Made by a program: the position numbers and the translations under genes. A DNA stretch of 64,000 bases from Gemmatimonadota bacterium (GTDB lineage Bacteria; Gemmatimonadota; Gemmatimonadetes; Palauibacterales; KS3-K002). The notes below the pieces were generated by a model. The model was not told the origin of the DNA and searched no databases. It saw only the letters and a program-made list of their open reading frames with translations. This document shows positions 10,779 through 54,828 of this stretch, piece after piece. The stretch is from NCBI GenBank assembly GCA_039586795.1, contig JBDHJS010000010.1:1-64000 (forward strand), read 5' to 3'. Each line of letters starts with the position of its first letter. Within the stretch, counting starts at the first letter, position 1.

Positions 10779-10885
10779 CGTCAGTCCCAATTGTAGCATT
10801 GGCTCTGGTGGATTTGCGCCGTCGCCATAGTTTGTCGCCGTGCGTGCGAAGGTCAATGATAACACCAACAGACGGGAGTGCCCCA

Positions 10886-11419
10886 ATGAGATCGACAGTT
10901 ATCGCCCTGGCCCTGGCGATGAGCTTACCCACCCTCCTCTCGGCCCAGCAGCCCACGTCGCTAGCGGCCGACATGATGAAGGATCTGGCTGGCCTGGTCG
11001 GAGAGTGGGAAGGTGAGGGCTGGGTGCAGTACGAGGAAATGGAGCGCACCAGCTTCAATGCGCAAGAAGTCGTCGAGAGCCGGTTGGGTGGGTTGGTTCT
11101 GGTGCTCGAAGGCACGGCGACCGCTACTGATGAGAGCAAAGTGATCTTCCATCACGGCTTCTCGATCCTCACCTACGCGGCGCCCAGTTCCCGGTTCGTG
11201 ATGTTGACGATCCGACAAGACGGTTCCAACACGGTCGCCGAGGTATCACAGGACGCAGGATTCCTGGAGTGGAGTTTCGAGGACCCCGTGCTCGGCACGG
11301 TTAAGCACACACTGCGACTGACGCAGTCCGGGCATCTATTCGCCGTGGGCGACCACTCGAAGGACGGCGGCGCGACCTGGCGCCGACACTACGAGATGGA
11401 ATTGACCCGCAAGATGTAG
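10886..11419 (+). CDS. Exported hypothetical protein (beta-barrel/DUF1579-like)
   Basis: Signal peptide MRSTVIALALA...SAQQ; LVGEWEGEGW motif. Confidence 0.6.
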   Translation: MRSTVIALALAMSLPTLLSAQQPTSLAADMMKDLAGLVGEWEGEGWVQYEEMERTSFNAQEVVESRLGGLVLVLEGTATATDESKVIFHHGFSILTYAAPSSRFVMLTIRQDGSNTVAEVSQDAGFLEWSFEDPVLGTVKHTLRLTQSGHLFAVGDHSKDGGATWRRHYEMELTRKM

Positions 11420-11426
11420 CGACGGA

Positions 11427-12695
11427 CTACGACACGCCCTTGAGGACCAGGGTGGCGTTGATGCCACCAAAGCCGAACGAGTTCGAGATGGCGAACCCCA
11501 CGTTCGCCTCTCGTCCCCCGTTCGCCAGATAGTCCAGGTCGCAGTCAGGGTCGGGGTCGCTCAGGTTGAGGGTCGGCGGCATCCAGCCGCGAGAGATCGC
11601 CAGTGTGGTGATGGCGGCCTCGATGGCGCCGGACGCGCCCAACGGATGACCGTAGTAACCCTTCGTTCCGCTGACCGGAACGCGGTACGCATGCTCGCCC
11701 AGCACTGACTTGATCGCCTTCGTCTCGACCGGATCGTTGAGCCGTGTCGACGACGCGTGGGCGTTCACGTACTCCACCTCGTCGGGAACGCCCCCCGCAT
11801 CGGCCAGCGCGATCTCGATCGCCCGAGCGGATTGGACCCCATCTGGCCGCGGCGCCGTCATGTGATAGCCATCGTTTGTAGTGCCGAACCCGCACAGCTC
11901 CGCGTAGATGCGGGCATCGCGCTTCACGGCGTGCCCCCATTCCTCGAGCACCAGTACGGCGGCGCCCTCACCCATGACGAAACCGTCTCGCTCCCGATCG
12001 AAAGGCCGACTGGCCGTCGCCGGGTCGTCGTTGCGCTTTGACATGGCCCGAATCAAAGCGAAGGCGCCGTAGGAGAGCGGCGAAAGCGGGCACTCGACGC
12101 CGCCAGCCAGCGCCGCGTCGGCCGCGCCGTCGCGGATCAATTGGTACGCGTGACCGACACCGATGGCCCCGGAAGCGCAGCTCATGCCGTTCGTGGAGTT
12201 GGGTCCGGTGAAGCCAAACTCGATGGCGATGTTGCAGCTGGCGGCGCCGGTGAACACAGCGAGGGCGAGTTGCGGACTGACGGCGGAGGGGCCCTGCTCG
12301 ACGAAGACGTGATGCTGGCTCTCGGCGAAGGCGACGCCGCCCAACGCCGAGCCCATCTGCACCGCCACGCGATCCGACTCCAACGAACCCGCATCGAGCC
12401 CCGCATCGTCCAGCGCCATACGCGCCGTGGCCACGCTGAATTGACCGAAGCGGTCTAATCGCTTCGCCCGCTTTGCTTCCATATGATCGGCGGGATCGAA
12501 GCCGTCGACTTCAGCGCCCATCCGGCTACGGAACGCCGCGGGGTCGAAGCGGGTGATCTCGCGGACAGCCGAGACACCCCGCTCGAGACCTTGCCATAGA
12601 TGTTGAGCCCCGATACCGATGGGCGTGACGCAGCCGATGCCAGTGATGGCGACTCGGCGACGTCCGTTGCCGCCGTTCTCACTATTATGACTCAC
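11427..12695 (-). CDS. Beta-ketoacyl-ACP synthase II (FabF/KS-alpha family)
   Basis: RRVAITGIG, catalytic Cys in MSCASG, NAHASST, GHPLGASG, NSFGFGG. Confidence 0.9.
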   Translation of the reverse strand: MSHNSENGGNGRRRVAITGIGCVTPIGIGAQHLWQGLERGVSAVREITRFDPAAFRSRMGAEVDGFDPADHMEAKRAKRLDRFGQFSVATARMALDDAGLDAGSLESDRVAVQMGSALGGVAFAESQHHVFVEQGPSAVSPQLALAVFTGAASCNIAIEFGFTGPNSTNGMSCASGAIGVGHAYQLIRDGAADAALAGGVECPLSPLSYGAFALIRAMSKRNDDPATASRPFDRERDGFVMGEGAAVLVLEEWGHAVKRDARIYAELCGFGTTNDGYHMTAPRPDGVQSARAIEIALADAGGVPDEVEYVNAHASSTRLNDPVETKAIKSVLGEHAYRVPVSGTKGYYGHPLGASGAIEAAITTLAISRGWMPPTLNLSDPDPDCDLDYLANGGREANVGFAISNSFGFGGINATLVLKGVS

Positions 12696-39425: not shown

Positions 39426-39791
39426 ATGAGGCGAGTTCTGATGACCGCTGCGCTGACGGTTCTCGTAATTGGCTGCGCGACCGAACGGCCGGATGGAAAC
39501 GCTGACGAGGTAGGTGCCGAATCGACTTACGATCTTCAGACCGAGAGCGTACCGGCGAACCTGAGACACCTCATTGCGCTGGCTGAGAAGTGGGGGATCG
39601 GCGATGATGTGGAACGGGGAGAGTTCATCGAGAGCGCTACAGCGGAAGAACGGCAGGAGCTGATCGATGCGATAACTCCGTATCAAAGCGCTATCACCGC
39701 CTGGCTCGACACGTTCGGCACCAATCCTCTTAGCGATGAAGCGGCGGCGTTCCTCTACATGCAGCTAGCGGTAGAGGAGATGCCCAACTAG
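39426..39791 (+). CDS. Hypothetical lipoprotein
   Basis: LVIGC lipobox; WGIGDD motif. Confidence 0.6.
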   Translation: MRRVLMTAALTVLVIGCATERPDGNADEVGAESTYDLQTESVPANLRHLIALAEKWGIGDDVERGEFIESATAEERQELIDAITPYQSAITAWLDTFGTNPLSDEAAAFLYMQLAVEEMPN

Positions 39792-41335
39792 AGCAGCACC
39801 GGCATCCCCATCGCCGGCCAGATTAGCCACACAAAAAGCGCCAGCACGATGATCAGCAGCACGCTGGCGGGGATTCCGGCCTTGAAGAACTCCGCCGTCG
39901 TGAACTGATTGCTGGCGTAGGCGATGGCGTTGGGCGCGGCGCCGACGAGCAGTAGGAAGGGCATGCCCGCTGCAACCAACGACGCAAACAGAATGACCTC
40001 AGGAGCTACACCGACATAGGGAGCGATCACCAGCGCGACCGGCACCGTAATGGCGATCGCGGCGACGTTCATGATCAGGTTGGTCATCACGAGGACAAAC
40101 GTCGCGACGCCGAGCACGAAGAAGAGCCAGTGTGTGCCCTGCAACAGTCCCAGCCACTTGATTGCCATCCATTCCGCAGCTCCCGTCTGCCACAGGCAAA
40201 GGCCGATGCTCATCGCCCCTCCGAAAAGCAGGACGATATTCCACGAGGTGTTTTCGAGATCGTCCAGCGACACGATGCGGAAGACGAAGAACAGCACGGT
40301 GGCTACGAGGATTATCGCGCTCTTATCGAGCGGCTCCAGCGCCGGGATGAATGAGCGCAAACTCAGAAGAACGATCGTGCCCGCCACGATCGCCACCGAG
40401 AGTAGCTCGTTGCGGCTAATCGGACCAAGCCTGTCGTACAAGCGCTTCACGCGTTCCCGCAGGCCGGGAATCGTCTTCTCCTCGGGCGGATAGTAGATCA
40501 TGAAGTAGATCCATATCAGGACCGTCATCACGACTCCCACCGGCAGCATGTAGTAGCTCAGCTCGAAGAAGCTGACCGGTCGCCCCGTGATGTCACGAAA
40601 GAAACCGATCGCCACCGCGCCGCGGGCCGCCCCGAGCAACGTGATGATGCTGCCCGCGCCAGCAACGAAGGCCATCCCCATGAACAGGCCTTTGCCAAAT
40701 CGCGTCGGTTCGCTCTCGTCCGTATACAGAGCGTAGATAGCCAGGAACAGTGGAAATACGGTGGCGGCCACGGCGGTGTGCGCCATGACGAGCGTGAGCG
40801 ACGCCGTCATGATGTAGCACCCGAAATAGATCATTGCGGTTCGCTCTCCCACCAGAGAGAGCATCTTGTACGCCAGGCGGCGTGTCAGCCCCGTCTTTGT
40901 GAAGACCATCCCAAACGTCAGCGACCCGAAGATGAACCAGACCGACGGGTCCATGAAGTCGGTGAACGCATCGCGCGCCGGCCGGATCAGGAAGAGCGCT
41001 TGGACGACGCCGATGGCGATGGCGGTTACACCGATGGGTATGACCTCGGTGACCCACCAGGTCGCAGCGAGGAAGAAGAGGGCGAGCGCGGCCTTCCCTT
41101 CCCGTGTCAGGTGAAAGACCTCTCCCTGAGGGTCTACCGCGGGTCTTGGCGTGGGAGAGAAATAGACCAGGGCGAAGAGCGCAACACCGAGCAGGATGAA
41201 GGCGAGTCGCTTCCAGTCGACCTCTGTGTCTTCCTTGGTGCCCTTCGCGCGAGCAAATTCGACCGCTCCGGCTCCGGCCTTCGATCCGACGCCGGGCACG
41301 GTTGTCACTGCCTTAGACAACGCCTCATCGGCCAT
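39788..41335 (-). CDS. SLC13/DASS family anion (sulfate/dicarboxylate) transporter
   Basis: WWVTEVIP, GLTRRLA, WNIVLLFGGA, APNAIAY; multi-TM. Confidence 0.85.
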   Translation of the reverse strand: MADEALSKAVTTVPGVGSKAGAGAVEFARAKGTKEDTEVDWKRLAFILLGVALFALVYFSPTPRPAVDPQGEVFHLTREGKAALALFFLAATWWVTEVIPIGVTAIAIGVVQALFLIRPARDAFTDFMDPSVWFIFGSLTFGMVFTKTGLTRRLAYKMLSLVGERTAMIYFGCYIMTASLTLVMAHTAVAATVFPLFLAIYALYTDESEPTRFGKGLFMGMAFVAGAGSIITLLGAARGAVAIGFFRDITGRPVSFFELSYYMLPVGVVMTVLIWIYFMIYYPPEEKTIPGLRERVKRLYDRLGPISRNELLSVAIVAGTIVLLSLRSFIPALEPLDKSAIILVATVLFFVFRIVSLDDLENTSWNIVLLFGGAMSIGLCLWQTGAAEWMAIKWLGLLQGTHWLFFVLGVATFVLVMTNLIMNVAAIAITVPVALVIAPYVGVAPEVILFASLVAAGMPFLLLVGAAPNAIAYASNQFTTAEFFKAGIPASVLLIIVLALFVWLIWPAMGMPVLL

Positions 41336-41376
41336 GTGACTATGACCTCACAGCAACCTCCCGTAGAAGGCCGCGA

Positions 41377-41913
41377 TTATTTCAGCAGTTGGGCCAGATC
41401 GCGAAAGACATCGACCGACCTCACCACCCCAACGAGCTGACCGCCCTGGAGTACAGGGATCAAGTTCACATCGAGGGCGACCATCGCCTGGACGGCCTTC
41501 ATCACGTGGTCGTCGGCATCGAGTATCGCCTCGATCGGATTCATTACATCGCTTATCGGCCTATCTGCCTGCTCTCTAATGCCTCGCACGACACGATCGT
41601 AAGACAGCTCGGCGAGGTTTGGATCCACGTCTATGTCGAAGAGCTTCTTCTTGTATTCCAGCGGTTTGCTCAACAGGTACTTTGGCTCCAGGCCACGCAT
41701 GATGTCCCGGCGCCGAACGGTTCCGACCAGCACGTTGATCTGGTCAAACACAAGGAGTACTCGAGGCAAAGATTTGCGCGTTTCGACCTCCAGCTGCGCC
41801 TCCTCGATGACCTGGATCGCCTCTCGTAAGGTGGAGTTATCTTGCACCGAGGGGTACTGCTCGACTGGAATCATGACCTCTTTGACTCGCCTCATTACTT
41901 CCACGATAGTCAC
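41377..41913 (-). CDS. CBS domain protein
   Basis: VKEVMIP, LVG.V...DI, IPVL...LVGVVR..D. Confidence 0.85.
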   Translation of the reverse strand: MTIVEVMRRVKEVMIPVEQYPSVQDNSTLREAIQVIEEAQLEVETRKSLPRVLLVFDQINVLVGTVRRRDIMRGLEPKYLLSKPLEYKKKLFDIDVDPNLAELSYDRVVRGIREQADRPISDVMNPIEAILDADDHVMKAVQAMVALDVNLIPVLQGGQLVGVVRSVDVFRDLAQLLK

Positions 41914-42341
41914 CAGCCCTTCTTGCGCATGATCTCTGACATCTTGTCCTCGATTCGCTTCTCCGTGAGCGAGGATCTCTTCGTCGCGGCCTCCTCGATC
42001 TTCTCCACTAATGTCCCGATGTCCGCGGGCTTCTCAAGAAAGTCCAGCGCCCCAAGCTTCATCGCCTCGACGGCCTGACCTAACGTCGCACGACCCGTCA
42101 GCAGGATGACCTGAAGATCGGGGTTGATCTTCAGTAGCTGCTTCAGAGTCTCTATACCGTCCATCCCGGGCATTGCCATATCGAGCAGAATGGCATCGAA
42201 CGGCCTTTGAGCGGCCTTCTCCAACGCGACTTCACCGTTTTCAGCGGTTTCTACAGCAAGACCTCGCGCTTCTAGCCGTTCCGCAAGGACCTCGACGAAG
42301 TCCACCTCGTCATCGACGAGGAGAACGGTGCGTTCGCTCAT
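41910..42341 (-). CDS. Stand-alone response regulator receiver
   Basis: LLVDDE, LDMAMPGMDG, LTG, KP. Confidence 0.9.
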   Translation of the reverse strand: MSERTVLLVDDEVDFVEVLAERLEARGLAVETAENGEVALEKAAQRPFDAILLDMAMPGMDGIETLKQLLKINPDLQVILLTGRATLGQAVEAMKLGALDFLEKPADIGTLVEKIEEAATKRSSLTEKRIEDKMSEIMRKKGW

Positions 42342-42718
42342 CCTTCATCCTCCCCGCGAGATGCAGCGGCAAGCAGGGCCTTCACCAAGTCGTCGATCTG
42401 CACCGGCTTCATGAGATAATCGTACGCTCCCAGCTCTTTGCCTTTCTCCGCATCCTCCGCCGAGCTCCAACCGGTGAGCAGGATCACTTCTAGTTCCGGT
42501 CGTTGTTCCTTGATCCGCTTGGTCAACTCCAACCCACCCAGCCCCGGCATCTTGACGTCCAGCAGCACCACGTCGCACGGATTCTCCTCCAGGTAGGCAA
42601 GCGCGGCCGCGCCGGTGGTGACGCCCTCGGCCTGGAAACCCCGCAGGTTTAGACGCTGCTCCAAAGCACTAACGAGCTCGTCTTCGTCATCCACGATCAG
42701 AACACGCAAGGGTTCCAT
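42338..42718 (-). CDS. Stand-alone response regulator receiver
   Basis: LIVDDE, LDVKMPG, LTG, KP. Confidence 0.9.
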   Translation of the reverse strand: MEPLRVLIVDDEDELVSALEQRLNLRGFQAEGVTTGAAALAYLEENPCDVVLLDVKMPGLGGLELTKRIKEQRPELEVILLTGWSSAEDAEKGKELGAYDYLMKPVQIDDLVKALLAAASRGEDEG

Positions 42719-42727
42719 ATCCGGCTC

Positions 42728-44488
42728 CTAGGCGTGCGCCCGCCGCATCGGCAGCGTGACGGTGAAGCAAGTTCCCTGCCCTACCTTGCTCTTTACCGTG
42801 ATTTGCCCGCCCAGCTTCTGGACGATTCCGTAAGTAATGGAAAGACCGAGGCCTGTACCCGCGCCCTTTTTGGTGGTGAAGAACGGATCGAAGATATGTG
42901 CGATCTCATCCTCGGGGATGCCGACGCCATCATCGGTTATACTTACTGCTACCGAGTCTTCCTCTGTCTTTTCGATCTCTATGTCGATGCGTCCACCTTC
43001 GTCGACCGCGGCGAAGGCGTTGTTCACGATATTCAAGAATACCTGCTGCAGCTGCCCCCGATCGCTGACGACGGGAGGTGGCGGCTCCGAATGCATGAAG
43101 ACCACTCGAATCTCTCGGTAGGTGGCTTCCTTTTCCAGGAACTCCAGAACTTCTCTCAGAAGCTCATCGAGGTCGATGGTCGTCCACTGCACCTCCATAT
43201 GTTTGGCAAACCCCAGCAGCCTATGCGTAATGCTGCCGCAGCGCTCCGCCGACTTAAGCACGGAGTTCAGCAGTGGCATTAGCTTATCTTTCGCAGGCGT
43301 CTCCTCGGATAGCGTCAACAGATCCTTTAGTAGCCCGGCCTTCTGCGTGATGATCGACAGCGGGTTATTGATCTCATGTGCTACACCGGCACCAAGGCGT
43401 CCGATCGCCGCCATCTTGTTGGAGTATTCTATTTTGTGGTAGAGCGCCGCGCGTTTTGTATCCGCGTCGCGAACACGACTCACCGTGTAGATCGATCCCC
43501 AGATGACCACCGCCAGTATCAGCACCACACTCGCCGCGGGAAAAACCAGCAGGTCGCGACGCAAGGGCAGCCAGCCCGCGTGCAGCGCCACCCGCGGGCT
43601 CAAGACCACGAGCGTGAACGGCGAGTTCTCGATGTGGGCGTAGCTGACGATCAGCGGCTCTCCCTGCTCATCCTCCAGGTCGACAAGCTCCGCCTGCCTG
43701 CTATAGGGGAGCTGCGGCAACGGGGTGGGTTCGAGCACCTCACCGTAGAGCCTGGATGAGCTTTGCAGGATGCCTTCGGCATTGATGATGAATGCGTCAC
43801 TGAACGGCTGCACCCCCAACGAGTGGCACCGTCGACACACCGGATCCTGTTCCGGGCGTCGTGCCGATCGAGCTCTCACCAGCCAGTGGAATGCGTCCGT
43901 GTCGATTGTCACACGAAGCACGTATCGATGTCCCTCTGGGTCATCATGACGGATTGCGACAATGATGTGCGGGAGGTCTCTAAAGCCGCGGAAAACCTCG
44001 CTCACATAAGCTCCGCGGTCGCTGACTGCACGGAACCAGTCTTCGTTCGCGTAGTTCACCGCCGTCGGCTCACGCGGACCGGCGAAAGCCGTTTGCGTAC
44101 CTTCCTCGTTGATCAGTCCGATGTCGATCACTCCGCCAAACGTCTGGTTCAGATTAGCGAGCAGCGAGCTCAGCCTTTCGGCTTCGCCCAGCTCGTCGTA
44201 CGTCTCCTCCCGAGTGACCATCGCCAGGGCCGATTGGCGCTCGGAGAGATACGACTCGATCGACAGTTTTCCCGCAGCGGCGAATCGAAGCATCGGCCTG
44301 GTTAGCTCGGACCGGAACGCTTCCTGGTACTGGTTATAGGTTATCGTGGACATGATAAGGAACGGCACGATGGCTACAGAGCTGACCGAAAGCACTGCGA
44401 CGAGAACCATCTTTCGGTAGCGCCGCCGAGAGATCAGATGATCCAGATCTTCCTGGGTTCCTACTTGCTTCGCGTCGTCCAGTATCAC
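42728..44488 (-). CDS. Membrane sensor histidine kinase (NtrB-like) with Cache-like extracytoplasmic domain containing CxxCH
   Basis: Two TM segments, GVAHEINNPL H-box, N box, DDGVG, FDPFFTTK, GTGLGL; CRRCH at 43823-43837. Confidence 0.9.
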   Translation of the reverse strand: MILDDAKQVGTQEDLDHLISRRRYRKMVLVAVLSVSSVAIVPFLIMSTITYNQYQEAFRSELTRPMLRFAAAGKLSIESYLSERQSALAMVTREETYDELGEAERLSSLLANLNQTFGGVIDIGLINEEGTQTAFAGPREPTAVNYANEDWFRAVSDRGAYVSEVFRGFRDLPHIIVAIRHDDPEGHRYVLRVTIDTDAFHWLVRARSARRPEQDPVCRRCHSLGVQPFSDAFIINAEGILQSSSRLYGEVLEPTPLPQLPYSRQAELVDLEDEQGEPLIVSYAHIENSPFTLVVLSPRVALHAGWLPLRRDLLVFPAASVVLILAVVIWGSIYTVSRVRDADTKRAALYHKIEYSNKMAAIGRLGAGVAHEINNPLSIITQKAGLLKDLLTLSEETPAKDKLMPLLNSVLKSAERCGSITHRLLGFAKHMEVQWTTIDLDELLREVLEFLEKEATYREIRVVFMHSEPPPPVVSDRGQLQQVFLNIVNNAFAAVDEGGRIDIEIEKTEEDSVAVSITDDGVGIPEDEIAHIFDPFFTTKKGAGTGLGLSITYGIVQKLGGQITVKSKVGQGTCFTVTLPMRRAHA

Positions 44489-44498
44489 CGCAGCACCT

Positions 44499-45422
44499 CT
44501 AGTCCGACTTCTTGCCGGAATGACCGGCGCTCCTTACAACTTCCATTAGGTCATTAATGTCGACCGGCTTCCGAAGATAATCAAAGGCTCCCAAGCGTAG
44601 CGCTTCCTTTTCGTCCTGGTCGGAGCCGTGCCCAGTCATGATGATCACTTCCATCTGTGGATAGGTTCTCTTCACCCTGCGCAGCACTTCCATCCCGTCG
44701 ATGCCAGGCATGCGCAGATCGAGGACCATGACGTCGGGGACCTCTTCCTCTAGCATCAGCAGCGCCTGCTCCCCGTTCAGGGCAACTTCGCTGCCGACCT
44801 CGCGCATCTCCATCCGCTCCGCCATCGTATGAACGAAGTCTTCCTCATCATCGACAAACAGGACTTTGAGCGTATCGGCCGGCAACTCGCCGGCGCCGGT
44901 CGACGGTTCGGCCGCACCTCTATCTTTCTCTGCGGAGTCCTCTTCTAGCGCCTCCAACGCTGCATCCGGTACGCCCGCCTCCGCGAAGGCCGCCGCCGTC
45001 ATACTCTTGTCGAATTCTTCCTGCGAGTCTTTTAGGAACTCGACGGCCGCTTTCAGGCTCTTGGCCCAGGCGGAGCGGACGGTGTTCAGGAGTTGGCTGG
45101 TGTCGGCCGGCTTTTGCAGGTACTCGAACGCGCCGAGTCTACGCGCCTCCTCCTCTTCGAGATCCGACCCGTGGCCCGTTAAGATGATGACTTCAATCTG
45201 GGGATGCTTCTTCTTCACCTGTTCGAGCACCTCCATGCCATCGATGCCGGGCATCCGGAGGTCGAGGACCATCACGTCCGGTGGGTCGTCGTCCAGCATC
45301 TCCAGCGCCTCCTCGCCGCTCAGCGCCACGCGGCTGCCGACATCGCGCATCTCCATTCGCTCGGCCAGCGTCTTGACATAGGCTTCTTCGTCATCGACGA
45401 GCAGCAACTTGATCTTGCTCAT
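44499..45422 (-). CDS. Response regulator with two tandem receiver domains
   Basis: Duplicated VDDEE...PDVMVLDLRMPGIDGMEVL...TGHGS...KP. Confidence 0.9.
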   Translation of the reverse strand: MSKIKLLLVDDEEAYVKTLAERMEMRDVGSRVALSGEEALEMLDDDPPDVMVLDLRMPGIDGMEVLEQVKKKHPQIEVIILTGHGSDLEEEEARRLGAFEYLQKPADTSQLLNTVRSAWAKSLKAAVEFLKDSQEEFDKSMTAAAFAEAGVPDAALEALEEDSAEKDRGAAEPSTGAGELPADTLKVLFVDDEEDFVHTMAERMEMREVGSEVALNGEQALLMLEEEVPDVMVLDLRMPGIDGMEVLRRVKRTYPQMEVIIMTGHGSDQDEKEALRLGAFDYLRKPVDINDLMEVVRSAGHSGKKSD

Positions 45423-45452
45423 TACAATCCTCGTTACAGCCAGGGGTCATTC

Positions 45453-46097
45453 TTAAAGGACGACGCGGAAACCCTGCGTTGAAGCGACTGCCTCGACCGA
45501 TGCGCCCAGGCTTTCGAGAACTCGTGCCAGTCGCTCCCACGCCTTGGCTTGGGTCGGGGAGAGCTTGGTCGGCACGCCGCCCACCGCGCCGTTGAATTCG
45601 AGCGACGGTCGGTCCCCTTCTCGACCGGGATGAACGGTGACCGTGCCACCTTCCTCCAACTGCTCGAAACAGCAGTCAACCGCGGTGCACAGAGCCATCT
45701 GCAGTAATAGCGGATTGGTCACGATCGAGACGTCTTTGTCTCCAGGCTGTGCCTCTATCTCATGCCTCCCCTGTCTCGCCTTGCGCTGGCAGAGAAACGC
45801 GACTTGCTCGACCGCCTGATTGAGAGCGACTTCGTCCTCCACGTGATCCAGGCTATGTGCGAACCTGTTCAGGCAGGTGAGAAGATCCGATCCCCGCTTC
45901 ACCTGCGTTCGTATGCGGTCGACAGCCCGCATCAGCTTGTCGGGGTCCGGTGAGCCAGCTTTGGCTGTCGAGGTCACGATGTCCTCGATCAAACCCGCCG
46001 ATTCCTTGACGATCGCCAGTACATTGCGCAGCTCGTGCGTGGCGCTGGCGGTGATCTTGCCAATGAACGCCGCTTCGCGGTCTTCGGGCGTGCTCAT
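45453..46097 (-). CDS. Histidine kinase-like phosphotransfer protein (H-box, degenerate ATPase domain)
   Basis: SATHELRNVLAI H-box; no N/G1/F/G2 boxes. Confidence 0.65.
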   Translation of the reverse strand: MSTPEDREAAFIGKITASATHELRNVLAIVKESAGLIEDIVTSTAKAGSPDPDKLMRAVDRIRTQVKRGSDLLTCLNRFAHSLDHVEDEVALNQAVEQVAFLCQRKARQGRHEIEAQPGDKDVSIVTNPLLLQMALCTAVDCCFEQLEEGGTVTVHPGREGDRPSLEFNGAVGGVPTKLSPTQAKAWERLARVLESLGASVEAVASTQGFRVVL

Positions 46098-46212: not shown

Positions 46213-46267
46213 AACCGTGACGAATATCACGGTTGCCGCTTGACAGCGCTCGTTGGAGAGCTAGACT
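46213..46267 (+). promoter_or_regulatory. Palindromic operator AACCGTGA-N6-TCACGGTT next to a sigma70-type promoter (TTGACA-16-TAGACT)
   Basis: Palindrome 46213-46234; -35 at 46240-46245; -10 at 46262-46267; divergent intergenic region. Confidence 0.6.
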
Positions 46268-46295
46268 GGCACTAGACGCCCTAAAGGAGTTAATC

Positions 46296-46943
46296 GTGGC
46301 GATAATCACGATTTCCCGTGGTACGCTGAGTGGCGGAAGGGCAACCGCCGAATGCCTTTCCGACCTGCTCGAGTACCCGTGCGTCGGTCGGGAGATTCTA
46401 CAGGCTGCGGCCAAGAAGTTGGGGGCCTCGGAAGAACTGCTGGCCAAGAAGATGGAAGACCCGCCTTCGCTCTGGGCTCGACTGACCAAGGAACGCAAGA
46501 ACTACCTACTCGCCGTTCAAACCACCTTAGCCGAATACTGTGAGACCGGGAGTCTGGTCTACCACGGGTTGGCCGGTCAATTCCTGCTGCGAGATCTCCC
46601 CGGTGTCTTGTCGGTCCGCCTCATCGCGCCGTTTGATACGCGCGTGCGATCGCTGATGGGCTCACACCACGGCATGACGCAGAAGGCCGCCGAGGAGTTC
46701 ATTCACAACGTGGATGAGGATAGGAAACGCTGGGTCCGATTGATGTACGGCGCCGACGTGGGAGATCTCACGCTGTACGATCTAACCGTTAATCTAGAGT
46801 CGATCTCGCAAGAGACGGCGTGCAAGATCATCGCCGAAGCGGCGGTGCAGCCGCAGTACGAGGTAACGGCCGAAGTGAAAGCGAAGCTCGAAGCGTTCGC
46901 CGCAGCTTGCCGTACGCAGCTTCGCAGTCTGGGGGACGACTAA
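46296..46943 (+). CDS. Cytidylate kinase-like family protein
   Basis: IITISRGTLSGG, VYHG.AG..LL, VRLIAP, YDL.VN; RBS AAGGAG. Confidence 0.8.
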   Translation: MAIITISRGTLSGGRATAECLSDLLEYPCVGREILQAAAKKLGASEELLAKKMEDPPSLWARLTKERKNYLLAVQTTLAEYCETGSLVYHGLAGQFLLRDLPGVLSVRLIAPFDTRVRSLMGSHHGMTQKAAEEFIHNVDEDRKRWVRLMYGADVGDLTLYDLTVNLESISQETACKIIAEAAVQPQYEVTAEVKAKLEAFAAACRTQLRSLGDD

Positions 46944-46946
46944 GCC

Positions 46947-47765
46947 GTGGCGATCATCAGCATTTGTCGGGGGACGAAGAGCGGCGGCCAGGCATTGGCA
47001 GAATGTCTGGCCGAGAAGCTGCAGTACCCCATTGTCGCCCGGGAAGTCGTCCAGGAGGCGTCCGCCGATATCGGTGTATCGGAGAAAGACTTGAGTCGCG
47101 GATTCGAGCGCAGACCGACGATGTGGAATCGGCACGCTTCTGACCGGCGACTTTACATCGCGGCCGTGCAGGCGGCGCTAGCCGAGCACGTCGTGGCGGG
47201 AGACCTGGTTTATCACGGGCGTGCGGGCCAGGTGCTTCTAAGGGGCTTGCCGGGTGTCCTCAAGGTTCGCCTGATCGCTCCGATGGGTGACCGCGTTCGC
47301 AAAGTGATGGAAAGCAGGGAGATGGATGCGGCTACCGCCGAACAGTACATACGGCATGTAGATGGAATCAGAGCGCGTTGGGTCAAGATGATGTACGGCC
47401 AGGACATCGAGGACCCGGTGCTTTACAATATGGTCATCAACCTGAAGACGATGACGGTGCCGTCGGCTTGCGCGGTAGTAAGGCGGGCAGCCGAGCAGCC
47501 GGATTTTGCGATAACGCCCGAGGTGAAGGCGAAATTGGTGGATTTCCGTCTGGCGTGTCGGGTCAAAGTCGCACTGGCAGCCGCACGCGATACGCGTTCC
47601 CTAGATCTTCAGGTTGAGGCAGACGGTGGAGTGATTGAGGTCTTCGGTAGCGTTCCCGCACTGACGTCCGGACAGATGGGCGAGCAAATCGTGGCCGCCG
47701 CACGGTCGGTGCCCGGCGTGGACGAAGTCCGCCTCAAGGTTGAGTGGTTCGACCCGTATCCCTGA
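46947..47765 (+). CDS. Cytidylate kinase-like family protein with C-terminal BON domain
   Basis: Paralog of the upstream gene; C-terminal V.ADGGVIEVFG...VPGVDEV. Confidence 0.8.
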   Translation: MAIISICRGTKSGGQALAECLAEKLQYPIVAREVVQEASADIGVSEKDLSRGFERRPTMWNRHASDRRLYIAAVQAALAEHVVAGDLVYHGRAGQVLLRGLPGVLKVRLIAPMGDRVRKVMESREMDAATAEQYIRHVDGIRARWVKMMYGQDIEDPVLYNMVINLKTMTVPSACAVVRRAAEQPDFAITPEVKAKLVDFRLACRVKVALAAARDTRSLDLQVEADGGVIEVFGSVPALTSGQMGEQIVAAARSVPGVDEVRLKVEWFDPYP

Positions 47766-47803
47766 GCGGTAGACACAGCAGGGAGCGGGTCGAGGAGGAA
47801 GAA

Positions 47804-48862
47804 GTGACTAAGTCAGGACAAGGATCGCCCGCAGTAGCTCTGCCGGGCGGATGCGTAGAATCAATACGCGGGAGACGGCGCTGGCCGAGCAGGTCACGCA
47901 TTCCCCCGCCCCACGCCGCCATCATCCCACTTCTTTGCCTCCTCCTGTTCCTCTACCCAACCATCTCTCAGGCGAGCGAAGTGACATCATCCATGGCGGC
48001 AAGCACGGGGCCCGCCTGGTGGGTCTGGCCGCTGGTGCTGTTCGTACTGACGTTCGTGATGGGGATACTGGCAGCGCTTGGCGGCGTTGGTGGAGGGGTA
48101 CTCTTCGTTCCTATAGTGAGCGGTTTCTTTCCATTCCACCTGGACTTCGTTCGCGGCTGCGGCTTGCTGGTCGCACTGGCCGGCGCGTTGGCCGCCGGAC
48201 CCGGCTTCCTCAAGATGAACCTCGCCAGTCTGCGGTTGGCGATGCCGGTGGCACTGATCGCTTCGACCTGCGCCATCGTCGGGGCGATGGTCGGACTGGC
48301 CCTCCCCACGGACATCGTTCAGACAGCGTTGGGGGCGACGATTCTGGGCATCGTGGTGCTGATGATCTTGGCGAAGAAGTCGGTTTTCCCGGAGGTCGAG
48401 CAAGCTGACAACCTGTCGACCAGTCTGAGGATCTGCGGGGTTTACTCCGAGGCCAGCATGGGCCAGACGATCAACTGGAAGGTCCACCGCACAGTGCCCG
48501 GACTGCTACTGTTCATCGTTATCGGCGTCATGGCTGGGATGTTCGGACTCGGCGCGGGCTGGGCCAACGTCCCGGTCCTCAATCTCGTGATGGGCGCGCC
48601 GCTGAAGGTCAGCGTGGCAACCAGCAAGTTCCTGCTTTCTATCACGGACACTTCTGCAGCGTGGATCTACGTCAACAAGGGCGCGGTCATCCCAATGATG
48701 GTGGTGCCATCGCTCGTCGGTATCATGCTGGGCTCGTTCATCGGCGTGCGAATCCTGCGCGTCGCGCGGCCGACATTTGTTCGGTGGATGGTAATTGGCT
48801 TGCTCTTGTTCGCCGGCGCGAAGGCGATCACCAAGGGGTTGGGGCTCCCATTCCTGTTCTAG
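47804..48862 (+). CDS. Sulfite exporter TauE/SafE family protein (start uncertain)
   Basis: GVGGGVLFVP, GMFGLGAGWANVP, ATS. Confidence 0.85.
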   Translation: MTKSGQGSPAVALPGGCVESIRGRRRWPSRSRIPPPHAAIIPLLCLLLFLYPTISQASEVTSSMAASTGPAWWVWPLVLFVLTFVMGILAALGGVGGGVLFVPIVSGFFPFHLDFVRGCGLLVALAGALAAGPGFLKMNLASLRLAMPVALIASTCAIVGAMVGLALPTDIVQTALGATILGIVVLMILAKKSVFPEVEQADNLSTSLRICGVYSEASMGQTINWKVHRTVPGLLLFIVIGVMAGMFGLGAGWANVPVLNLVMGAPLKVSVATSKFLLSITDTSAAWIYVNKGAVIPMMVVPSLVGIMLGSFIGVRILRVARPTFVRWMVIGLLLFAGAKAITKGLGLPFLF

Positions 48863-48880
48863 ACGACGGGCCAAAGAACC

Positions 48881-49333
48881 ATGGATACGAATAGCGAATT
48901 CGAGTGCCCGGGCGCTGACGAAGAACAGCTGCTCTACGCCAAGATCCTTCAGGCTGGCATGTACATCGGGCTGACTTTGCTCCTCGTGACTTTTGCCCTG
49001 TACAGTTCCGGCATCGTCGCTCCGGCCGTGCCGGTGGAACAGCTGCCCGAGTACTGGACGCTGAACGTCCATGACTACCTGGAAGCCACGAACCACGATC
49101 ATCTGCACAGGGAGCATGCCGTCTCGGGATGGGGCTGGCTCTCGGTTCTGGGCAAAGGCGACTATCTCAACTTTCTGGGGATCGCACTACTTTCAGGCGT
49201 GACTATCGTGTGCTACCTGGGGATCATCCCCACGCTAATCAGGAAGAAGGACAAGCCGTACATCATCATGGCTGTGCTGGAAGTCATCATTCTGACACTC
49301 GCGGCGAGTGGGATTCTCGCCGTCGGCCACTAA
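48881..49333 (+). CDS. DUF1634-like membrane protein (TauE partner)
   Basis: EEQLLYA, GWGW...GDYLNFLGIA. Confidence 0.7.
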   Translation: MDTNSEFECPGADEEQLLYAKILQAGMYIGLTLLLVTFALYSSGIVAPAVPVEQLPEYWTLNVHDYLEATNHDHLHREHAVSGWGWLSVLGKGDYLNFLGIALLSGVTIVCYLGIIPTLIRKKDKPYIIMAVLEVIILTLAASGILAVGH

Positions 49334-49339
49334 GCTGCG

Positions 49340-49837
49340 ATGGACACGCCCGCGGGCGCGCCACGTTTCTTCCCAGTTGGAATCGATCTGCGCGGCAAGC
49401 CATGCCTCATCGTTGGCGGAGGCAACGTGGGAACGCGCAAGGCGACCACTCTGGTGCACGCCGGGGCCGAAGTGACGGTAGTCGCACCTCAGGTCACGGA
49501 CGAGCTGGCGGGTTTGATCAGCGAGAACAGCCTGCGCTGGATTCAGGATGTCTTTCGTCAGGAGCACTTGCCGGGCGTCTTTCTCGCCGTAGCCGCGACC
49601 GACGACGACGACACCAACGCGGCTGTCATTCGAGCCGCACTCGAGAACCACGCGCTGGCGTGCGACGCGTCGTCAGCCGAACGCTCACAACTCATCTTCG
49701 GTGCGATGCTGGAACGTGACGACGTCACGATCGCCGTCTTCACGGACGGCCGCGATCCGGCAACGGCTCGGCGGACACGCGACCAGCTGGCCGACCTCAT
49801 CAGCCAGGACCACAAGTCGAAACCCCACGAGAGTTGA
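49340..49837 (+). CDS. sirC: Precorrin-2 dehydrogenase (SirC / CysG N-terminal domain)
   Basis: CLIVGGGNVG.RK, VAATDD..N, IAV.TDGRDP. Confidence 0.8.
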   Translation: MDTPAGAPRFFPVGIDLRGKPCLIVGGGNVGTRKATTLVHAGAEVTVVAPQVTDELAGLISENSLRWIQDVFRQEHLPGVFLAVAATDDDDTNAAVIRAALENHALACDASSAERSQLIFGAMLERDDVTIAVFTDGRDPATARRTRDQLADLISQDHKSKPHES

Positions 49838-49840
49838 GAC

Positions 49841-52042
49841 GTGGGGCAGCTAGCCGACTCCGTAGCAGCAGACAACCCCGTACCGGGTGACAGCGCAACG
49901 CATCCCTCGCCGCGTCGGGGTGTCGTACTCATCGGGCTGGGGACGCCCGCCGGACCCGACACGCCGTCGGTGCGCAAGCTTCTTGTTGAGAGCTTCACCG
50001 ACGAGTCTGTGGCCGCCTGGCCGGGTGGACTCCGATGGCTCCGAGGTGGAGTTGGCCGGTTTCATGCCAGACGACTGGCGCCGACCACCGCCGAACTGTA
50101 CCGCAAGATCTGGGATGTTCGCGGGGCTCCGCTGGCCGCCATCCTGTCAGACGTGGCGTCGTCCCTGGCCACGGCGCTACCCAAAGGCTGGACGGTCTAC
50201 GTGGCGATGCGCTACGGCCGCCCGCAGATCGCCGACGTCATCCGCCAGGTGGAGGCTGATGGTATAGACGACCTCGTCGTCGTACCCATGTACCCACAGT
50301 TCAATTCGTCCACCTCCGGCACAATCCTACGCGAACTGCATCGCGTTCTGCGGCAGACCGGGCAACACATCAGTGTCGCCCTACGTTCCACGTGGTACGA
50401 CGACGTGGGCTACGTGAAAGCGCAGGCCCGACTGCTGGCCGACTACGCGGCGTCCAGGGACCTGTGGCCGGACGACGCGCATCTGCTGTTCTGTGCCCAC
50501 GGGCAGCCCGCTTTTGGGGAAAGCTCGCTCTATACGCAACAGGTCCGAAAGACGGCCCGGCTAGTCGCCGATCAGCTCGGCTGGCCGATGGAGCGGGCAT
50601 CGCTCGCTTACCAGCCGCGGCGCATCCCGTTTCGCTCGCTTCGTCCGGAAGCCCGTGAGAGGCTGGCCGAGCTCACGGCGGAAGGGATGAAGCGGGTGCT
50701 GGTCTGCCCGATCACCTCCCCGGTTGATGGGATCACGACGCTGGGCGAGATCGGAGTGGAATGCCGGGAGTTCTTCGAGGCGAACGGCGGCAGCCTGAGC
50801 CTATGCCCGGCGCTGAACTCTGCCGAGCCTTTTGTGGCAGCTCTGAGAAACCTGGTGCTGCGCGGTCCCCGATCTCTGACACCCGATAGGGCCTCGGCCA
50901 TCCCGATGCTGAGGCCGAGAACGGGAACTACCACGTGCGACGGCGAGCCCGAATCGCTGCTCATGATCGGCGCCTCTTTCGAAGGTGGTGTGCGCTCGGG
51001 CCGCGGCCCGCACCTGAGGTATAGCGACCCTAGCGTGTTCGGACGGGTGAGGAAGACTCGCAAGGAAATCCGCGACTTTTTGGATTGGATTCACACGCAG
51101 CCTGACGTTGGCGAGGCATTCGTGTGGAATACCTGCCAGCGAATCGAGTTCTACGGTTGGCTGGCCGATCCAACGGACCGGCAAGCCCGAAGGAGTGCGG
51201 TTGAGCGGATACGCAGCCGACTGTACGAGGCCGAACCGGACGGGCTGGAGGTAAATACTCTGTTCGGGATCGAGGCCTGGCATCATCTGATGCGCACGGC
51301 AGCCGGCCTCAACAGCGCCTTGCCTGGCGACCTCGATGTGGTGGCCCAGTTGGAGACGGCCTGCCGGACCGCGGAGCGCGCCGGGACGGCGGGGCCACGA
51401 ACGGCCTGCGTGGTGGATAGCGCCGTCGCTGTCTCCCGCGATGTGCGCACCGCGACCACCTGGGGCCACGTTAGCCACGGGTTCTGTCTCGCAGCCCTAC
51501 TGCAGGTTCAGGAGGTTGACGGAGCGCACATGGACGAGTGTCGCCACGTCGTCATCGGGGGATCATCCACTTCGCGTTCCGTCCTCTCCGCGCTATCCGA
51601 CCAGTTCGATGTACCGAAGCAGCAGATGACGCTGATATACCGAACTCACCATGGTCAGCTGAAGCTGCTGCGCAGTGCCATCGGCCATGGCAAACGCCTT
51701 CGCGTGCAATCGTACTCCGAACAGGCCGTGCTCGCCGCCATCGCCGCCGCTGACTTCGTCTACTTCGGCGTCGACTACCAGGAACCCATCTTCGACGCAG
51801 GGACTCTCGGTCGCGTCCGGGACCTGAAGCAGCGCCCGCTGCGGGTGATCGACTTCAACTCGTTCGGATCGATCGCCAGCGCGAGTCCGCAGTCGGGTCT
51901 GAAGATCTGGACCGCCGAAGATCTTGACCAGGCGATCGTCGACTTCGTCGAGGGGATGCGAGCGCAACCGCGCTTCTCGCGTGCAGTCGAAGAGTCGGAG
52001 GAGTGGATCGAAAACCACCTGCGTTCGCAGGTCGGGGCGTAA
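49841..52042 (+). CDS. Fusion of ferrochelatase (HemH/CpfC-like) and glutamyl-tRNA reductase (HemA-like) domains
   Basis: N-terminal LGTP, Y.KIW, AMRYGRP, PMYPQF, AHG, CPALN; C-terminal NTCQRIEFY, HLMRTAAGLNS...GD..V..Q. Confidence 0.75.
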   Translation: MGQLADSVAADNPVPGDSATHPSPRRGVVLIGLGTPAGPDTPSVRKLLVESFTDESVAAWPGGLRWLRGGVGRFHARRLAPTTAELYRKIWDVRGAPLAAILSDVASSLATALPKGWTVYVAMRYGRPQIADVIRQVEADGIDDLVVVPMYPQFNSSTSGTILRELHRVLRQTGQHISVALRSTWYDDVGYVKAQARLLADYAASRDLWPDDAHLLFCAHGQPAFGESSLYTQQVRKTARLVADQLGWPMERASLAYQPRRIPFRSLRPEARERLAELTAEGMKRVLVCPITSPVDGITTLGEIGVECREFFEANGGSLSLCPALNSAEPFVAALRNLVLRGPRSLTPDRASAIPMLRPRTGTTTCDGEPESLLMIGASFEGGVRSGRGPHLRYSDPSVFGRVRKTRKEIRDFLDWIHTQPDVGEAFVWNTCQRIEFYGWLADPTDRQARRSAVERIRSRLYEAEPDGLEVNTLFGIEAWHHLMRTAAGLNSALPGDLDVVAQLETACRTAERAGTAGPRTACVVDSAVAVSRDVRTATTWGHVSHGFCLAALLQVQEVDGAHMDECRHVVIGGSSTSRSVLSALSDQFDVPKQQMTLIYRTHHGQLKLLRSAIGHGKRLRVQSYSEQAVLAAIAAADFVYFGVDYQEPIFDAGTLGRVRDLKQRPLRVIDFNSFGSIASASPQSGLKIWTAEDLDQAIVDFVEGMRAQPRFSRAVEESEEWIENHLRSQVGA

Positions 52043-52137: not shown

Positions 52138-52174
52138 ACTACCTCTTGCGCGGGCCGCCGAAGCTTGCCAGATT

Positions 52175-52290
52175 AATCGTGACAAAAATCTCGGATCCCA
52201 ACCGCAATCGTGACAAATATCGCGCTATCCGGCGCGACCACCGAATCAAGCCCTGGCACCGGCCCCGAAATCGTGAAAAAAACCGCACAA
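52175..52290. promoter_or_regulatory. Three AATCGTGAmAAA operator-like repeats (Rex/CRP-type GTGA-N6-TCAC) upstream of aprB
   Basis: Copies at 52175 (cgtga-caaaaa-tctcg), 52206 (cgtga-caaata-tcgcg) and 52269 (cgtga-aaaaaa-ccgca). Confidence 0.55.
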
Positions 52291-52406: not shown

Positions 52407-52874
52407 ATGCCGAGTTACGTGATTGGGGACAAGTGTGATGGGTGCAAGGCGCTCGATAAGACCGCCTGCCAGCACATTTGCCCGAACGATCTCATGGTCT
52501 TGAACAAGGAGACCATGAAGGCCTTCAACCAGGATCCCCACATGTGCTGGGAGTGCTACAGCTGCGTGAAGATCTGCCCGACGCAGGCGATCGAGGTGCG
52601 CGGTTACGCGGACTTCATCCCGCTGGGTGCCAGCGTGACGGCGATGCGCAGCAGCGAAGACATCATGTGGACGCTGCAGTTCCGCAGCAAAGAGATCAAG
52701 CCGAAGCGGTTCAAGTTCCCGATCCGCCGGGGAGTCGCGGAGGGCAAGGCGCAGCCGTTCGATCACTATCCTACGGGTGACGATGACCTGAAGAGCCCGA
52801 CGCTGATGTGCGAGCCGGAGGGCCTGAACACAGAGCGTGGACCGGTCAAGATGGACCAGGTCCCGACGCTTTAG
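52407..52874 (+). CDS. aprB: Adenylylsulfate reductase beta subunit
   Basis: CDGC...CQHICP, CWECYSCVKICP, VRGYADF, KRFKFPIR. Confidence 0.97.
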   Translation: MPSYVIGDKCDGCKALDKTACQHICPNDLMVLNKETMKAFNQDPHMCWECYSCVKICPTQAIEVRGYADFIPLGASVTAMRSSEDIMWTLQFRSKEIKPKRFKFPIRRGVAEGKAQPFDHYPTGDDDLKSPTLMCEPEGLNTERGPVKMDQVPTL

Positions 52875-52935
52875 TCGGCTCGGTTCGCAAGGCAGTCTGA
52901 TTTCTTCGGAATAAGAACTTAGGAGATATGTGAAA

Positions 52936-54828
52936 ATGGCGGATTTCGAAACCGTAACGGTTGAGACCGACCTGCTGATCTGCGGCGGCGGTATGGCCGC
53001 CTGCGGTGCAGCGGTGGAAGCGGCCTACTGGGCCAAGAAGCACGGATTGAAGGTCACGGTGGTCGACAAGGCGGCCATGGACCGCTCAGGCGCCGTGGCG
53101 ATGGGCCTTTCGGCCATTAACCAGTACGTGGATCTGAACAGCGGCAACAACACGCTGAAGGACTATCTGGACTACGTGCGCAACGATCTGATGGGCATCA
53201 CCCGCGAGGACCTCGTAGGGAGCATCGCGCGCCACGTGGACTCGACGGTTCACCTGTTCGAGAAATGGGGTCTCCCCATTTGGAAGGACAAAGAAGGCAA
53301 CTACGTCCATGAGGGACGTTGGCAGCTGATGATCAACGGCGAGTCCTACAAGGTCATCGTCGCAGAGGCCGCCAAGAACGCTCTGGCAGAGGCCGACGGT
53401 GAGTACTTCGAGCGCGTCTTCATCACGCACCCGCTGATCGACGGCGACAAGTGCGTGGGCGCGATTGGCTTCAGTGTCAGAGAGAACAAAGTCTACGTCT
53501 TCAAGGCAAAAGCCACGATGGTCGCCATGGGCGGCGCGGTACACGTGTTCAAGCCGCGCTCGACGGGTGAGGGCTTTGGCCGTTCCTGGTATCCACCCTT
53601 CAACTCCGGCGCCAGCGCTTTCTTCACGATCTATGGCGGCGCCGAGATGACCTGTCAGGAAGTGCGCTTCATCCCCGTCCGCTTCAAGGACGCGTACGGC
53701 CCGGTGGGCGCGTGGTTCCTGCTCTTCAAATCGATCGCAACCAACGCCGAGGGCGGCAACTACATGCAGGACAACGCTGCCGAGCTCGACAAATGGGAGC
53801 CTTACGGGAAGGTGAAGCCGCGTCCGGCCAACATTCGCAATTGGCTGATGATGCTGGACGTGATGGAAGGTAAGGCACCGATCTACATGCAGACCGCCGA
53901 CGCGATCAAGCGGATCGCCGACGAGGCGCCCGACGAGAAGGCGGCGAAGAAGAAGCTGAAGGAACTGGAGGCCGAGGCCTGGGAGGACTTCCTTGACATG
54001 ACGATCTCGCAGGCGATCCTCTGGGCCGCCACGAACGTCGAGCCGGAGAAGAAGCCGTCCGAGATCATGGCCTGTGATCCTTACTTCATCGGTTCGCACT
54101 CTGGCGCCTCCGGCGCCTGGGTCTCAGGGCCGGAAGATCTGCAGACCGACGAGACGAAGAACGAGTACTTCTGGGGTTACCCACACATGACGACCGTCAG
54201 CGGCATGTTTGCCGCGGGCGACGCCTCCGGGGCCTCCAGTCACAAGTTCTCGTCCGGCTCCCACGCCGAGGGACGTATCGCTGCCAAGGCCGCGATCTCC
54301 TACATCGTTGACAACAACATTTCGGCCAACGTCGACCAGGGTATGATCGACGAACTGACGGCCGAGATCCTCAAGCCGCTGGAGACGTTCGAGGCGCACA
54401 GCGGAGAGACCACGGACCCGGACATCAACCCGAACTACATCCGTCCGACGCAGTTTATGTATCGCCTGCAGAAGATCATGGACGAGTATGCGGGTGGTGT
54501 GTCCGCTCAGTTCAAGACCAGCGACAAGCTCCTCGAGAAGGGGATGGAGCTGCTGGCGTTCTTGAAGGAAGACGCCGACAAGCTGGCCGCGAAGAACCTG
54601 CACGAGTTGATGCGCTGCTGGGAGAACGTCCACCGCATGTACCAGGCGGACGCCCACGTGCGCTCGATCCACTTCCGTGAGGAGACGCGCTGGCCGGGTT
54701 ACTACTTCCGCTCAGACAAGCCGAGCATGGACAACAATAACTGGCTCGCGTTCTGCAACTGCAAGTACGACAAAGACACGGGCGATTGGGAAATGATGAA
54801 GAAGCCCGTCAAGTACATCTCGCAGTAA
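52936..54828 (+). CDS. aprA: Adenylylsulfate reductase alpha subunit
   Basis: RSGAVAMGLSAIN, WQLMINGESYK, RFKDAYGPVGAWF, HKFSSGS, REETRWPG. Confidence 0.97.
   Translation: MADFETVTVETDLLICGGGMAACGAAVEAAYWAKKHGLKVTVVDKAAMDRSGAVAMGLSAINQYVDLNSGNNTLKDYLDYVRNDLMGITREDLVGSIARHVDSTVHLFEKWGLPIWKDKEGNYVHEGRWQLMINGESYKVIVAEAAKNALAEADGEYFERVFITHPLIDGDKCVGAIGFSVRENKVYVFKAKATMVAMGGAVHVFKPRSTGEGFGRSWYPPFNSGASAFFTIYGGAEMTCQEVRFIPVRFKDAYGPVGAWFLLFKSIATNAEGGNYMQDNAAELDKWEPYGKVKPRPANIRNWLMMLDVMEGKAPIYMQTADAIKRIADEAPDEKAAKKKLKELEAEAWEDFLDMTISQAILWAATNVEPEKKPSEIMACDPYFIGSHSGASGAWVSGPEDLQTDETKNEYFWGYPHMTTVSGMFAAGDASGASSHKFSSGSHAEGRIAAKAAISYIVDNNISANVDQGMIDELTAEILKPLETFEAHSGETTDPDINPNYIRPTQFMYRLQKIMDEYAGGVSAQFKTSDKLLEKGMELLAFLKEDADKLAAKNLHELMRCWENVHRMYQADAHVRSIHFREETRWPGYYFRSDKPSMDNNNWLAFCNCKYDKDTGDWEMMKKPVKYISQ

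Follow-up and report, generated by a model that had tools for sequence, protein, structure and literature searches.

Two enzymes from opposite ends of haem synthesis, glutamyl-tRNA reductase (HemA, GluTR) and ferrochelatase (HemH), appear to be joined in one polypeptide beside the sulfate-reduction genes of a Gemmatimonadota genome, which raises the question of whether either half still works there and which tetrapyrrole it would serve. The gene lies in a stretch of 64,000 nucleotides, referred to here as the window, that begins an 84-kb contig (JBDHJS010000010.1) of a genome that is 97.8% complete. We found an intact fusion in which the C-terminal half, termed HemA*, is probably a short glutamyl-tRNA reductase feeding sirohaem synthesis and the N-terminal half is probably an impaired, folded passenger. 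The features of the fusion are as follows.

An intact fusion gene

49841..52042, + strand: HemH-HemA* fusion gene, 733 amino acids (aa) (open reading frame, Pfam, NCBIfam, homologue set)
49916..50860, + strand: ferrochelatase (HemH/PpfC-type) domain, aa 26-340 (Pfam, alignment, structure match)
50498..50500, + strand: H220 codon, counterpart of catalytic H263 in human ferrochelatase (alignment)
50735..50737, + strand: T299 codon (ACG) at the site of catalytic E343 (alignment; identical in public contigs)
50861..50947, + strand: linker between the domains, aa 341-369 (AlphaFold2 model; bridged by a contig of public run X4)
50948..51457, + strand: GluTR catalytic domain with T431, C432, R434, E436, H482, S492, D497 and Q503 (Pfam, alignment)
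51458..52039, + strand: NADPH-binding Rossmann domain (GGSSTS loop, R601, D671) and spinal helix (alignment, structure match)

As the original prediction had it, HemH-like and HemA-like domains share one polypeptide: a single open reading frame (ORF) with a GTG start and zero internal stops carries both Pfam domains. The coordinates also bear out its position, with the start 3 bp after the stop of a short sirC (49837) and the stop 364 bp before the start of aprB, upstream of aprBA. The motifs AHG (H220), DGITTLGE (296-303), TCQR (431-434) and IGGSSTS (572-578) are all where they had been read.

It is extremely unlikely that the fusion is an assembly chimera or a decaying pseudogene. None of the matched public-run contigs covers the entire gene, the best-matching run may be the window's own source sample, and the gene is dispensable in some relatives, but the family comprises at least 142 homologues, with both Pfam domains in all 120 listed, and dN/dS lies between 0.15 and 0.31 across both halves. 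A check of reads around the junction, advised from the outset, is answered by a contig of run X4 that bridges it (50795-51229) with 0 differences. Homologues, dN/dS and junction together exclude artefact or decay as far as sequence allows. The T299 codon (50735) recurs in contigs of runs X1 and X2 with 0 differences and is covered by an X3 contig that has one difference, position not given, within its 600 bases. Homologue names point to Gemmatimonadota, Planctomycetota and Zixibacteria, and the database label is 'ferrochelatase', with 'protoheme ferro-lyase/glutamyl-tRNA reductase' used for a few JGI records.

An alignment-based AlphaFold2 model of the full fusion has a mean predicted local distance difference test (pLDDT) score of 85.8 and a predicted template modelling score of 0.51; because of the latter, the mutual orientation of the two halves is uncertain. 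Within the linker, pLDDT falls below 50 at residues 361-366. A single-sequence model of the HemA half (pLDDT 40) was not used.

The architecture had not been recognised as characterised, and we likewise found no published description of a HemH-HemA fusion in the literature searched, with subscription papers mostly outside that search and genome-paper supplements a place where the gene could be listed. In section 10 of PMC13564367, the CpfC-ChdC fusion is listed along with the ALAS-FECH metabolon, but a HemH-HemA fusion is not. CpfC-ChdC, from Cutibacterium acnes, ties ferrochelatase to another pathway enzyme but joins two late steps, whereas the metabolon and the plant FC2-FLU-GluTR assembly tie ferrochelatase to the step forming 5-aminolaevulinate (ALA) but are non-covalent and eukaryotic. 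Unlike all three, the window's family places the first and last haem steps in one bacterial polypeptide, such that direct end-product feedback on ALA synthesis becomes testable with one protein.

The reductase half and its two genomic settings

We placed 57 family loci from species genomes by their neighbours: 26 lie in haem operons, 27 in islands of sulfate-reduction genes and 4 in neither setting. At the haem-operon loci, which are titled Phycisphaerae or Planctomycetota where named, hemN adjoins the fusion in 26/26, accompanied by hemE (24), hemY (23), hemB (16), hemC (10) and hemL (9); the family occupies the genomic slot of HemA there. Island loci are without hemN, hemE and hemY and instead have dsr or apr (21 loci), sirC (21), cbiX (10) and cobA (9); two of them, L048 and L060, were assigned on island-type neighbours only. 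L062-L064 are ordinary HemA and were excluded from counts, and residue counts skip rows gapped at the column concerned.

The C-terminal half is recognised as GlutR_N (PF05201) at aa 400-539 (E 3e-18, 66.3 bits against a threshold of 27), and model residues 369-733 superpose on GluTR (Z 26.9 to 5yjl; 1gpj residues 1-321). The catalytic and NADPH domain folds are those of the Methanopyrus kandleri (1gpj) and Arabidopsis (5yjl, 4n7r) enzymes, with Z of 20-27. The nucleophilic Cys is retained, as are residues aligned to M. kandleri H84, S94, E99 (as D) and Q105, in a mapping for which we assumed the roles of M. kandleri C48 and R50. T431, C432, R434, E436, D/E497, Q503, G573, S575 and T577 are kept in all 26 haem-operon and all 28 island copies. 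The Rossmann fold is present by structure match and the Arg of the N-R-T motif is kept, while the loop reads GGSSTS with no PF01488 match; about 12 residues are inserted after the first strand relative to ordinary GluTR. The reading of TCQR in place of TCNR stands, but not as a special alteration, as the third residue of TCxR varies freely across the family. HemA* stands as a group of its own (62 representatives at E ≤1e-30, with ordinary HemA only near 1e-15), linked to the ordinary HemA motifs by short, apparently stand-alone relatives that carry ISTCNRFE and GSGxT.

In many genomes no other candidate for this step was found. The fusion family is the only GlutR_N match in 4/5 single-sequence Phycisphaerae assemblies and 20/24 further Planctomycetota-type genomes (24/29 in total), as well as in 18/26 island genomes, one of which (G011) has hemL and hemB. 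No ALA synthase scored over the cut-off in any of the 5 genomes tested. Since the chelatase site is also intact in 25/26 haem-operon copies, the Phycisphaerae fusion likely performs both steps, and in genomes G001, G003 and G004 it is the only ferrochelatase as well.

We also assessed co-occurrence with dsr in the window's genome and 60 relatives, and found the HemA* half in 8 of the 61, all dsrB-positive, and in none of the 48 dsrB-negative genomes, as had been anticipated. Five further dsrB-positive genomes (76-89% complete) are without HemA* and all have an ordinary hemA; in 4 of these the order is tauE-duf-sirC-aprB-aprA with no fusion remnant and no N. The proposed role in sirohaem supply is supported as well. 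In such a pathway C432 would attack Glu-tRNA and NADPH would reduce the thioester to glutamate-1-semialdehyde, from which HemL, HemB, HemC and CobA-HemD would produce precorrin-2; SirC would oxidise this, and CbiX would insert iron to give sirohaem for the neighbouring sulfite reductase.

Several observations weigh against this reading. The fusion fails the hemA model TIGR01035 (71.2 bits, cut-off 209.55), and the dimerisation domain GlutR_dimer (PF00745) has no match in it at E 0.01; the chain ends where this domain would begin (about residue 321 of the 399-residue 1gpj chain), in keeping with the shortened C-terminus noted earlier, whereas ordinary HemA is described as a three-domain dimer (PMC6399207). 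Ser replaces the second glycine in the NADPH loop (GGSxTS for GAGEMG), the DxAxPRD motif reads DFNSFGS in the window copy, and the position of M. kandleri Arg300, a proposed tRNA contact (PMC6399207), is Met. Beside ccsA, the window's genome carries an ordinary hemA that includes the dimerisation domain, so the fusion may not be needed there, and the absence of other hemA genes elsewhere rests on metagenome-assembled genomes (MAGs) without reported completeness. All activities proposed here are read from what was observed directly: the architecture, the states of residues, the gene contexts, co-occurrence and selection.

Most of these departures, together with the long branch leading to HemA*, would also fit a HemA-like half that is not a working glutamyl-tRNA reductase and whose Cys acts on another acyl donor, or catalyses hydrolysis only, and HemA* is kept in 7/8 genomes of the window's clade also having ordinary hemA. 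We regard this as improbable, as HemA* is the sole HemA homologue beside hemL, hemB, hemC and hemD in many genomes where ALA synthase was not found (5 tested), its glutamate-pocket residues are invariant, and the stand-alone relatives link it to ordinary motifs. HemA* is instead apparently an undescribed subfamily of glutamyl-tRNA reductases without the dimerisation domain, which in ordinary GluTR is thought to cradle HemL; a literature search on activity of truncated GluTR returned nothing relevant. Standard hemA models score HemA* below their cut-off, so ALA synthesis would seem to be missing from many MAGs of Phycisphaerae and of dsr-bearing Gemmatimonadota.

Two further patterns were seen among the loci. 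A hypothetical gene of 177 aa (L035:9283-9816 and kin) precedes the fusion in at least 13/26 haem-operon loci and in all 4 unplaced loci; it has no Pfam or NCBIfam family, its Atlas clusters are unnamed, and its position makes it a candidate regulator. One Phycisphaerales genome has two family members 8 kb apart (L019:3-1976 and 9887-12262), one beside cobA-hemD, cbiX and rex and the other in a haem operon.

The chelatase half

The N-terminal half is ferrochelatase-like by family models and fold. It matches Ferrochelatase (PF00762) over aa 26-340 (E 1e-61, 208.8 bits) and passes the hemH model TIGR00109 (169.5 bits, cut-off 124.6), and model residues 22-342 superpose on human FECH (2hre/1hrk) with Z 36.1 and a root mean square deviation of 2.1. 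Resemblance to the sirohydrochlorin chelatases is far weaker (SirB Z 19.8), with no match to the CbiX family PF01903 in the fusion protein at E 0.01 and a sub-threshold CfbA match of 34 aa (16.8 bits).

In retaining the entire active site, and in having hemN and hemY as neighbours, the haem-operon copies resemble HemH/PpfC. The set H263/D340/E343/E347 (human numbering) is intact in 25/26 of them compared to 5/25 island copies, window included; the counterparts of N75, F337, E343, W310 and S303 are retained in 23/24 to 26/26 haem-operon copies. The window copy, fused to HemA* unlike HemH/PpfC, retains H220, R124, Y125, D296 and E303 but has lost five others (N75 to G32, S303 to P259, W310 to S266, F337 to S293 and E343 to T299), and keeps 75 of the 107 positions conserved in haem-operon copies. 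In its clade of seven, H220, D296, R124 and Y125 are present in 7/7, and the counterparts of N75, S303, W310 and F337 are gone in 7/7. The altered motif DGITTLGE is thus real, but is not a signature of the clade: the E343 position is E in 26/26 haem-operon copies and in 6/7 of the clade, and the change to T is private to the window's species. Chelation has likely been lost in the window copy, because human E343K is inactive, F337 is invariant and N75 belongs to the active-site network, as given for human ferrochelatase in PMC9133952; ligand binding could persist.

Could the window copy nevertheless still insert iron into protoporphyrin or coproporphyrin, and thus be as fully bifunctional as the Phycisphaerae form? 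The TIGR00109 score and the 75 conserved positions would allow it, but with five active-site counterparts lost, a separate hemH in a hemE-hemH-hemY cluster and no hemN found in the host genome, we consider this very unlikely. The host also encodes hemL, hemB, hemC, hemD and a ChdC-family gene, and its ordinary hemA and hemH make both halves of the fusion second copies. AhbD scored at most 305.7 there, below the cut-off of 500. Because hemE-hemH-hemY and the ChdC-family gene are present and hemN and an AhbD over the cut-off were not found, host haem is likely made via the coproporphyrin route; the premise of an Ahb route, taken over from classical sulfate reducers, is at odds with this genome.

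The original prediction also offered a repurposed sirohydrochlorin ferrochelatase that would complete the path from SirA and SirC. The half shares the class II fold with SirB, CbiX and CysG (enzymes treated, with SirC, in PMC7242693), sirC (21/27 island loci) and cobA are among its neighbours, and the metal His is kept in the window's clade. However, structural matches to SirB and CbiX stay at Z 18-20 compared to 36 for HemH, and CbiX, with its His residues, is encoded in the host genome as a separate protein; CbiX is also present in 25/26 island genomes, within the locus in 10/27, and in 4/5 dsrB-positive genomes without the fusion. Island copies show progressive loss with no common new active-site signature, and the half or the entire gene is deleted in dsr relatives, including the sister copy L021. 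With CbiX present, and four relatives with ordinary hemA having no gene between sirC and aprB, the proposal is most improbable.

Selection on the two halves was compared within the window's clade, where Nei-Gojobori (NG86) dN/dS was 0.18-0.31 for the chelatase and 0.15-0.25 for the reductase, indicating purifying selection on both. The median HemH/HemA distance ratio was 0.64 in haem operons, 1.96 in Gemmatimonadota islands and 1.08 in the window's clade (L016, L041, L021, L047, L060 and L030 excluded), such that the chelatase diverges more slowly than the reductase in haem operons and twice as fast in Gemmatimonadota islands. Given the purifying selection, the ratio of 1.08 and the four residues kept in 7/7, 'passenger' may understate the chelatase half in this clade, a further point against our interpretation.

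These rates would also fit an altered half that acts as a porphyrin or haem sensor and switches the reductase half off as tetrapyrrole accumulates, with the role of the reductase unchanged. Retention of the His and propionate-side residues alongside loss of the W310, F337, S303 and N75 counterparts is consistent with such a sensor, as is the co-purification of inactive human E343K with protoporphyrin (PMC9133952), and precedents exist in ALAS-FECH pull-downs (PMC13564367) and in the placement of plant FC2 in a GluTR-inactivation complex (bioRxiv 10.1101/2022.10.12.511875). A sensor is unlikely all the same: the chelatase half is cleanly missing in L021 and has SirC in its place in database proteins P0143, P0153 and P0179, other island lineages lose even the N-terminal lip and the catalytic His (kept in only 11/24 island copies), the E-to-T change is confined to one species, and purifying selection is also expected merely to keep a fused domain folded. 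Extended to the whole family, the idea becomes a single-chain feedback device in which one Phycisphaerae polypeptide would both start and finish haem synthesis, its dimerisation-free reductase would be throttled directly by product or substrate in its own chelatase, and the chelatase of the window's clade would be a pure tetrapyrrole sensor matching ALA output to sirohaem demand. We offer this tentatively and hold it to be doubtful; if true, bacteria would have in this family a covalent equivalent of the ALAS-FECH metabolon.

An impaired passenger fits the history suggested by the trees. In a quick IQ-TREE analysis of the HemA half, island copies fall into two clades, one of 23 (Shimodaira-Hasegawa-like approximate likelihood ratio test, 100) that lies within the Phycisphaerae haem-operon copies, and one of 4 from Planctomycetota; FastTree recovered the same two island groups from the chelatase half, which suggests two recruitments into dsr islands. 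The intact HemH and HemA of Phycisphaerae haem operons is apparently the ancestral form, a two-activity fusion whose copies would have entered dsr islands on two or more occasions; one of the lineages would have arrived in Gemmatimonadota, with the chelatase half relaxed after recruitment. The branch from HemA* to ordinary HemA is about 6.7 changes per column and the root hangs on this very long branch; these trees, limited to domains of at least 300 aa (HemA) or 200 aa (HemH), are without bootstrap or clade test, which also counts against our account. Within the family, the state of the chelatase grades naturally from intact to eroded, deleted or exchanged for SirC, in connection with recruitment into sulfate-reduction islands that move horizontally.

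Two candidates for a missing chelatase half were rejected: L047 as a natural HemA-only gene, with an N-run just upstream and a ferrochelatase-like piece elsewhere in the assembly, and L060, truncated by the contig start. Two dsr genomes, G011 and G026, have an eroded fusion as their only ferrochelatase homologue, with no ChdC-family gene and no AhbD over the cut-off. At L056:5729-9421 and in P0186 the fusion extends into a HemH-HemA*-radical SAM (HemN-like) triple fusion (1231 and 1269 aa). A Cys-rich tail (often C-x10-C-x2-C-x7-C, e.g. L028:9926-12241), counted at two or more Cys, occurs in 18/26 haem-operon copies, including the triple fusion, and in 0/28 island copies, the window's among them; it could be an Fe-S or Zn site accompanying an intact chelatase.

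Neighbouring genes in the window

47744..49333, + strand: tauE/SafE-family exporter and 150-aa membrane protein, upstream of sirC (ORFs, Pfam, neighbourhood comparison)
49340..49837, + strand: sirC, precorrin-2 dehydrogenase, 165 aa, CysG N-terminal domain (PF13241 E 7e-26; TIGR01470 113.9 bits vs 62.3)
52407..54828, + strand: aprB-aprA (Pfam, annotation)

The exporter and the membrane protein likely share one transcription unit with sirC. After aprBA the window continues with qmoABC, sat, dsrC and dsrT, and beyond it the contig (C73) carries dsrMKJOP, dsrAB, dsrL and dsrN before ending inside cobA-hemD; the start of the split cobA-hemD is found at the end of contig C35, together with cbiX and rex.

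Promoter and terminator scans of the window were at chance level (2 vs 1.3 and 5 vs 4.3). Upstream of aprB, at 52145-52290, AATCGTGACAAAAATCTC is invariant in 7/7 aligned genomes and two further AATCGTGA repeats occur in the window; these elements resemble Rex operators, and the island also carries rex (L081:932-1714). Transcription of aprB is likely to start from a promoter of its own.

Two tandem cytidylate-kinase-like (PF13189) genes at 46233-47765, the second with a BON domain, accompany the island in 11 loci. The stretch 39788-46097 encodes a DASS anion transporter, a CBS protein, response regulators and histidine kinases. Many island loci have these next to the fusion as well, and they might provide sulfate uptake and its control. 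At the other end of the window (12-3422), a 1136-aa ORF encodes another fusion, of a molybdopterin oxidoreductase (aa ~17-680) with a cysteine desulfurase of the NifS type (aa 752-1125).

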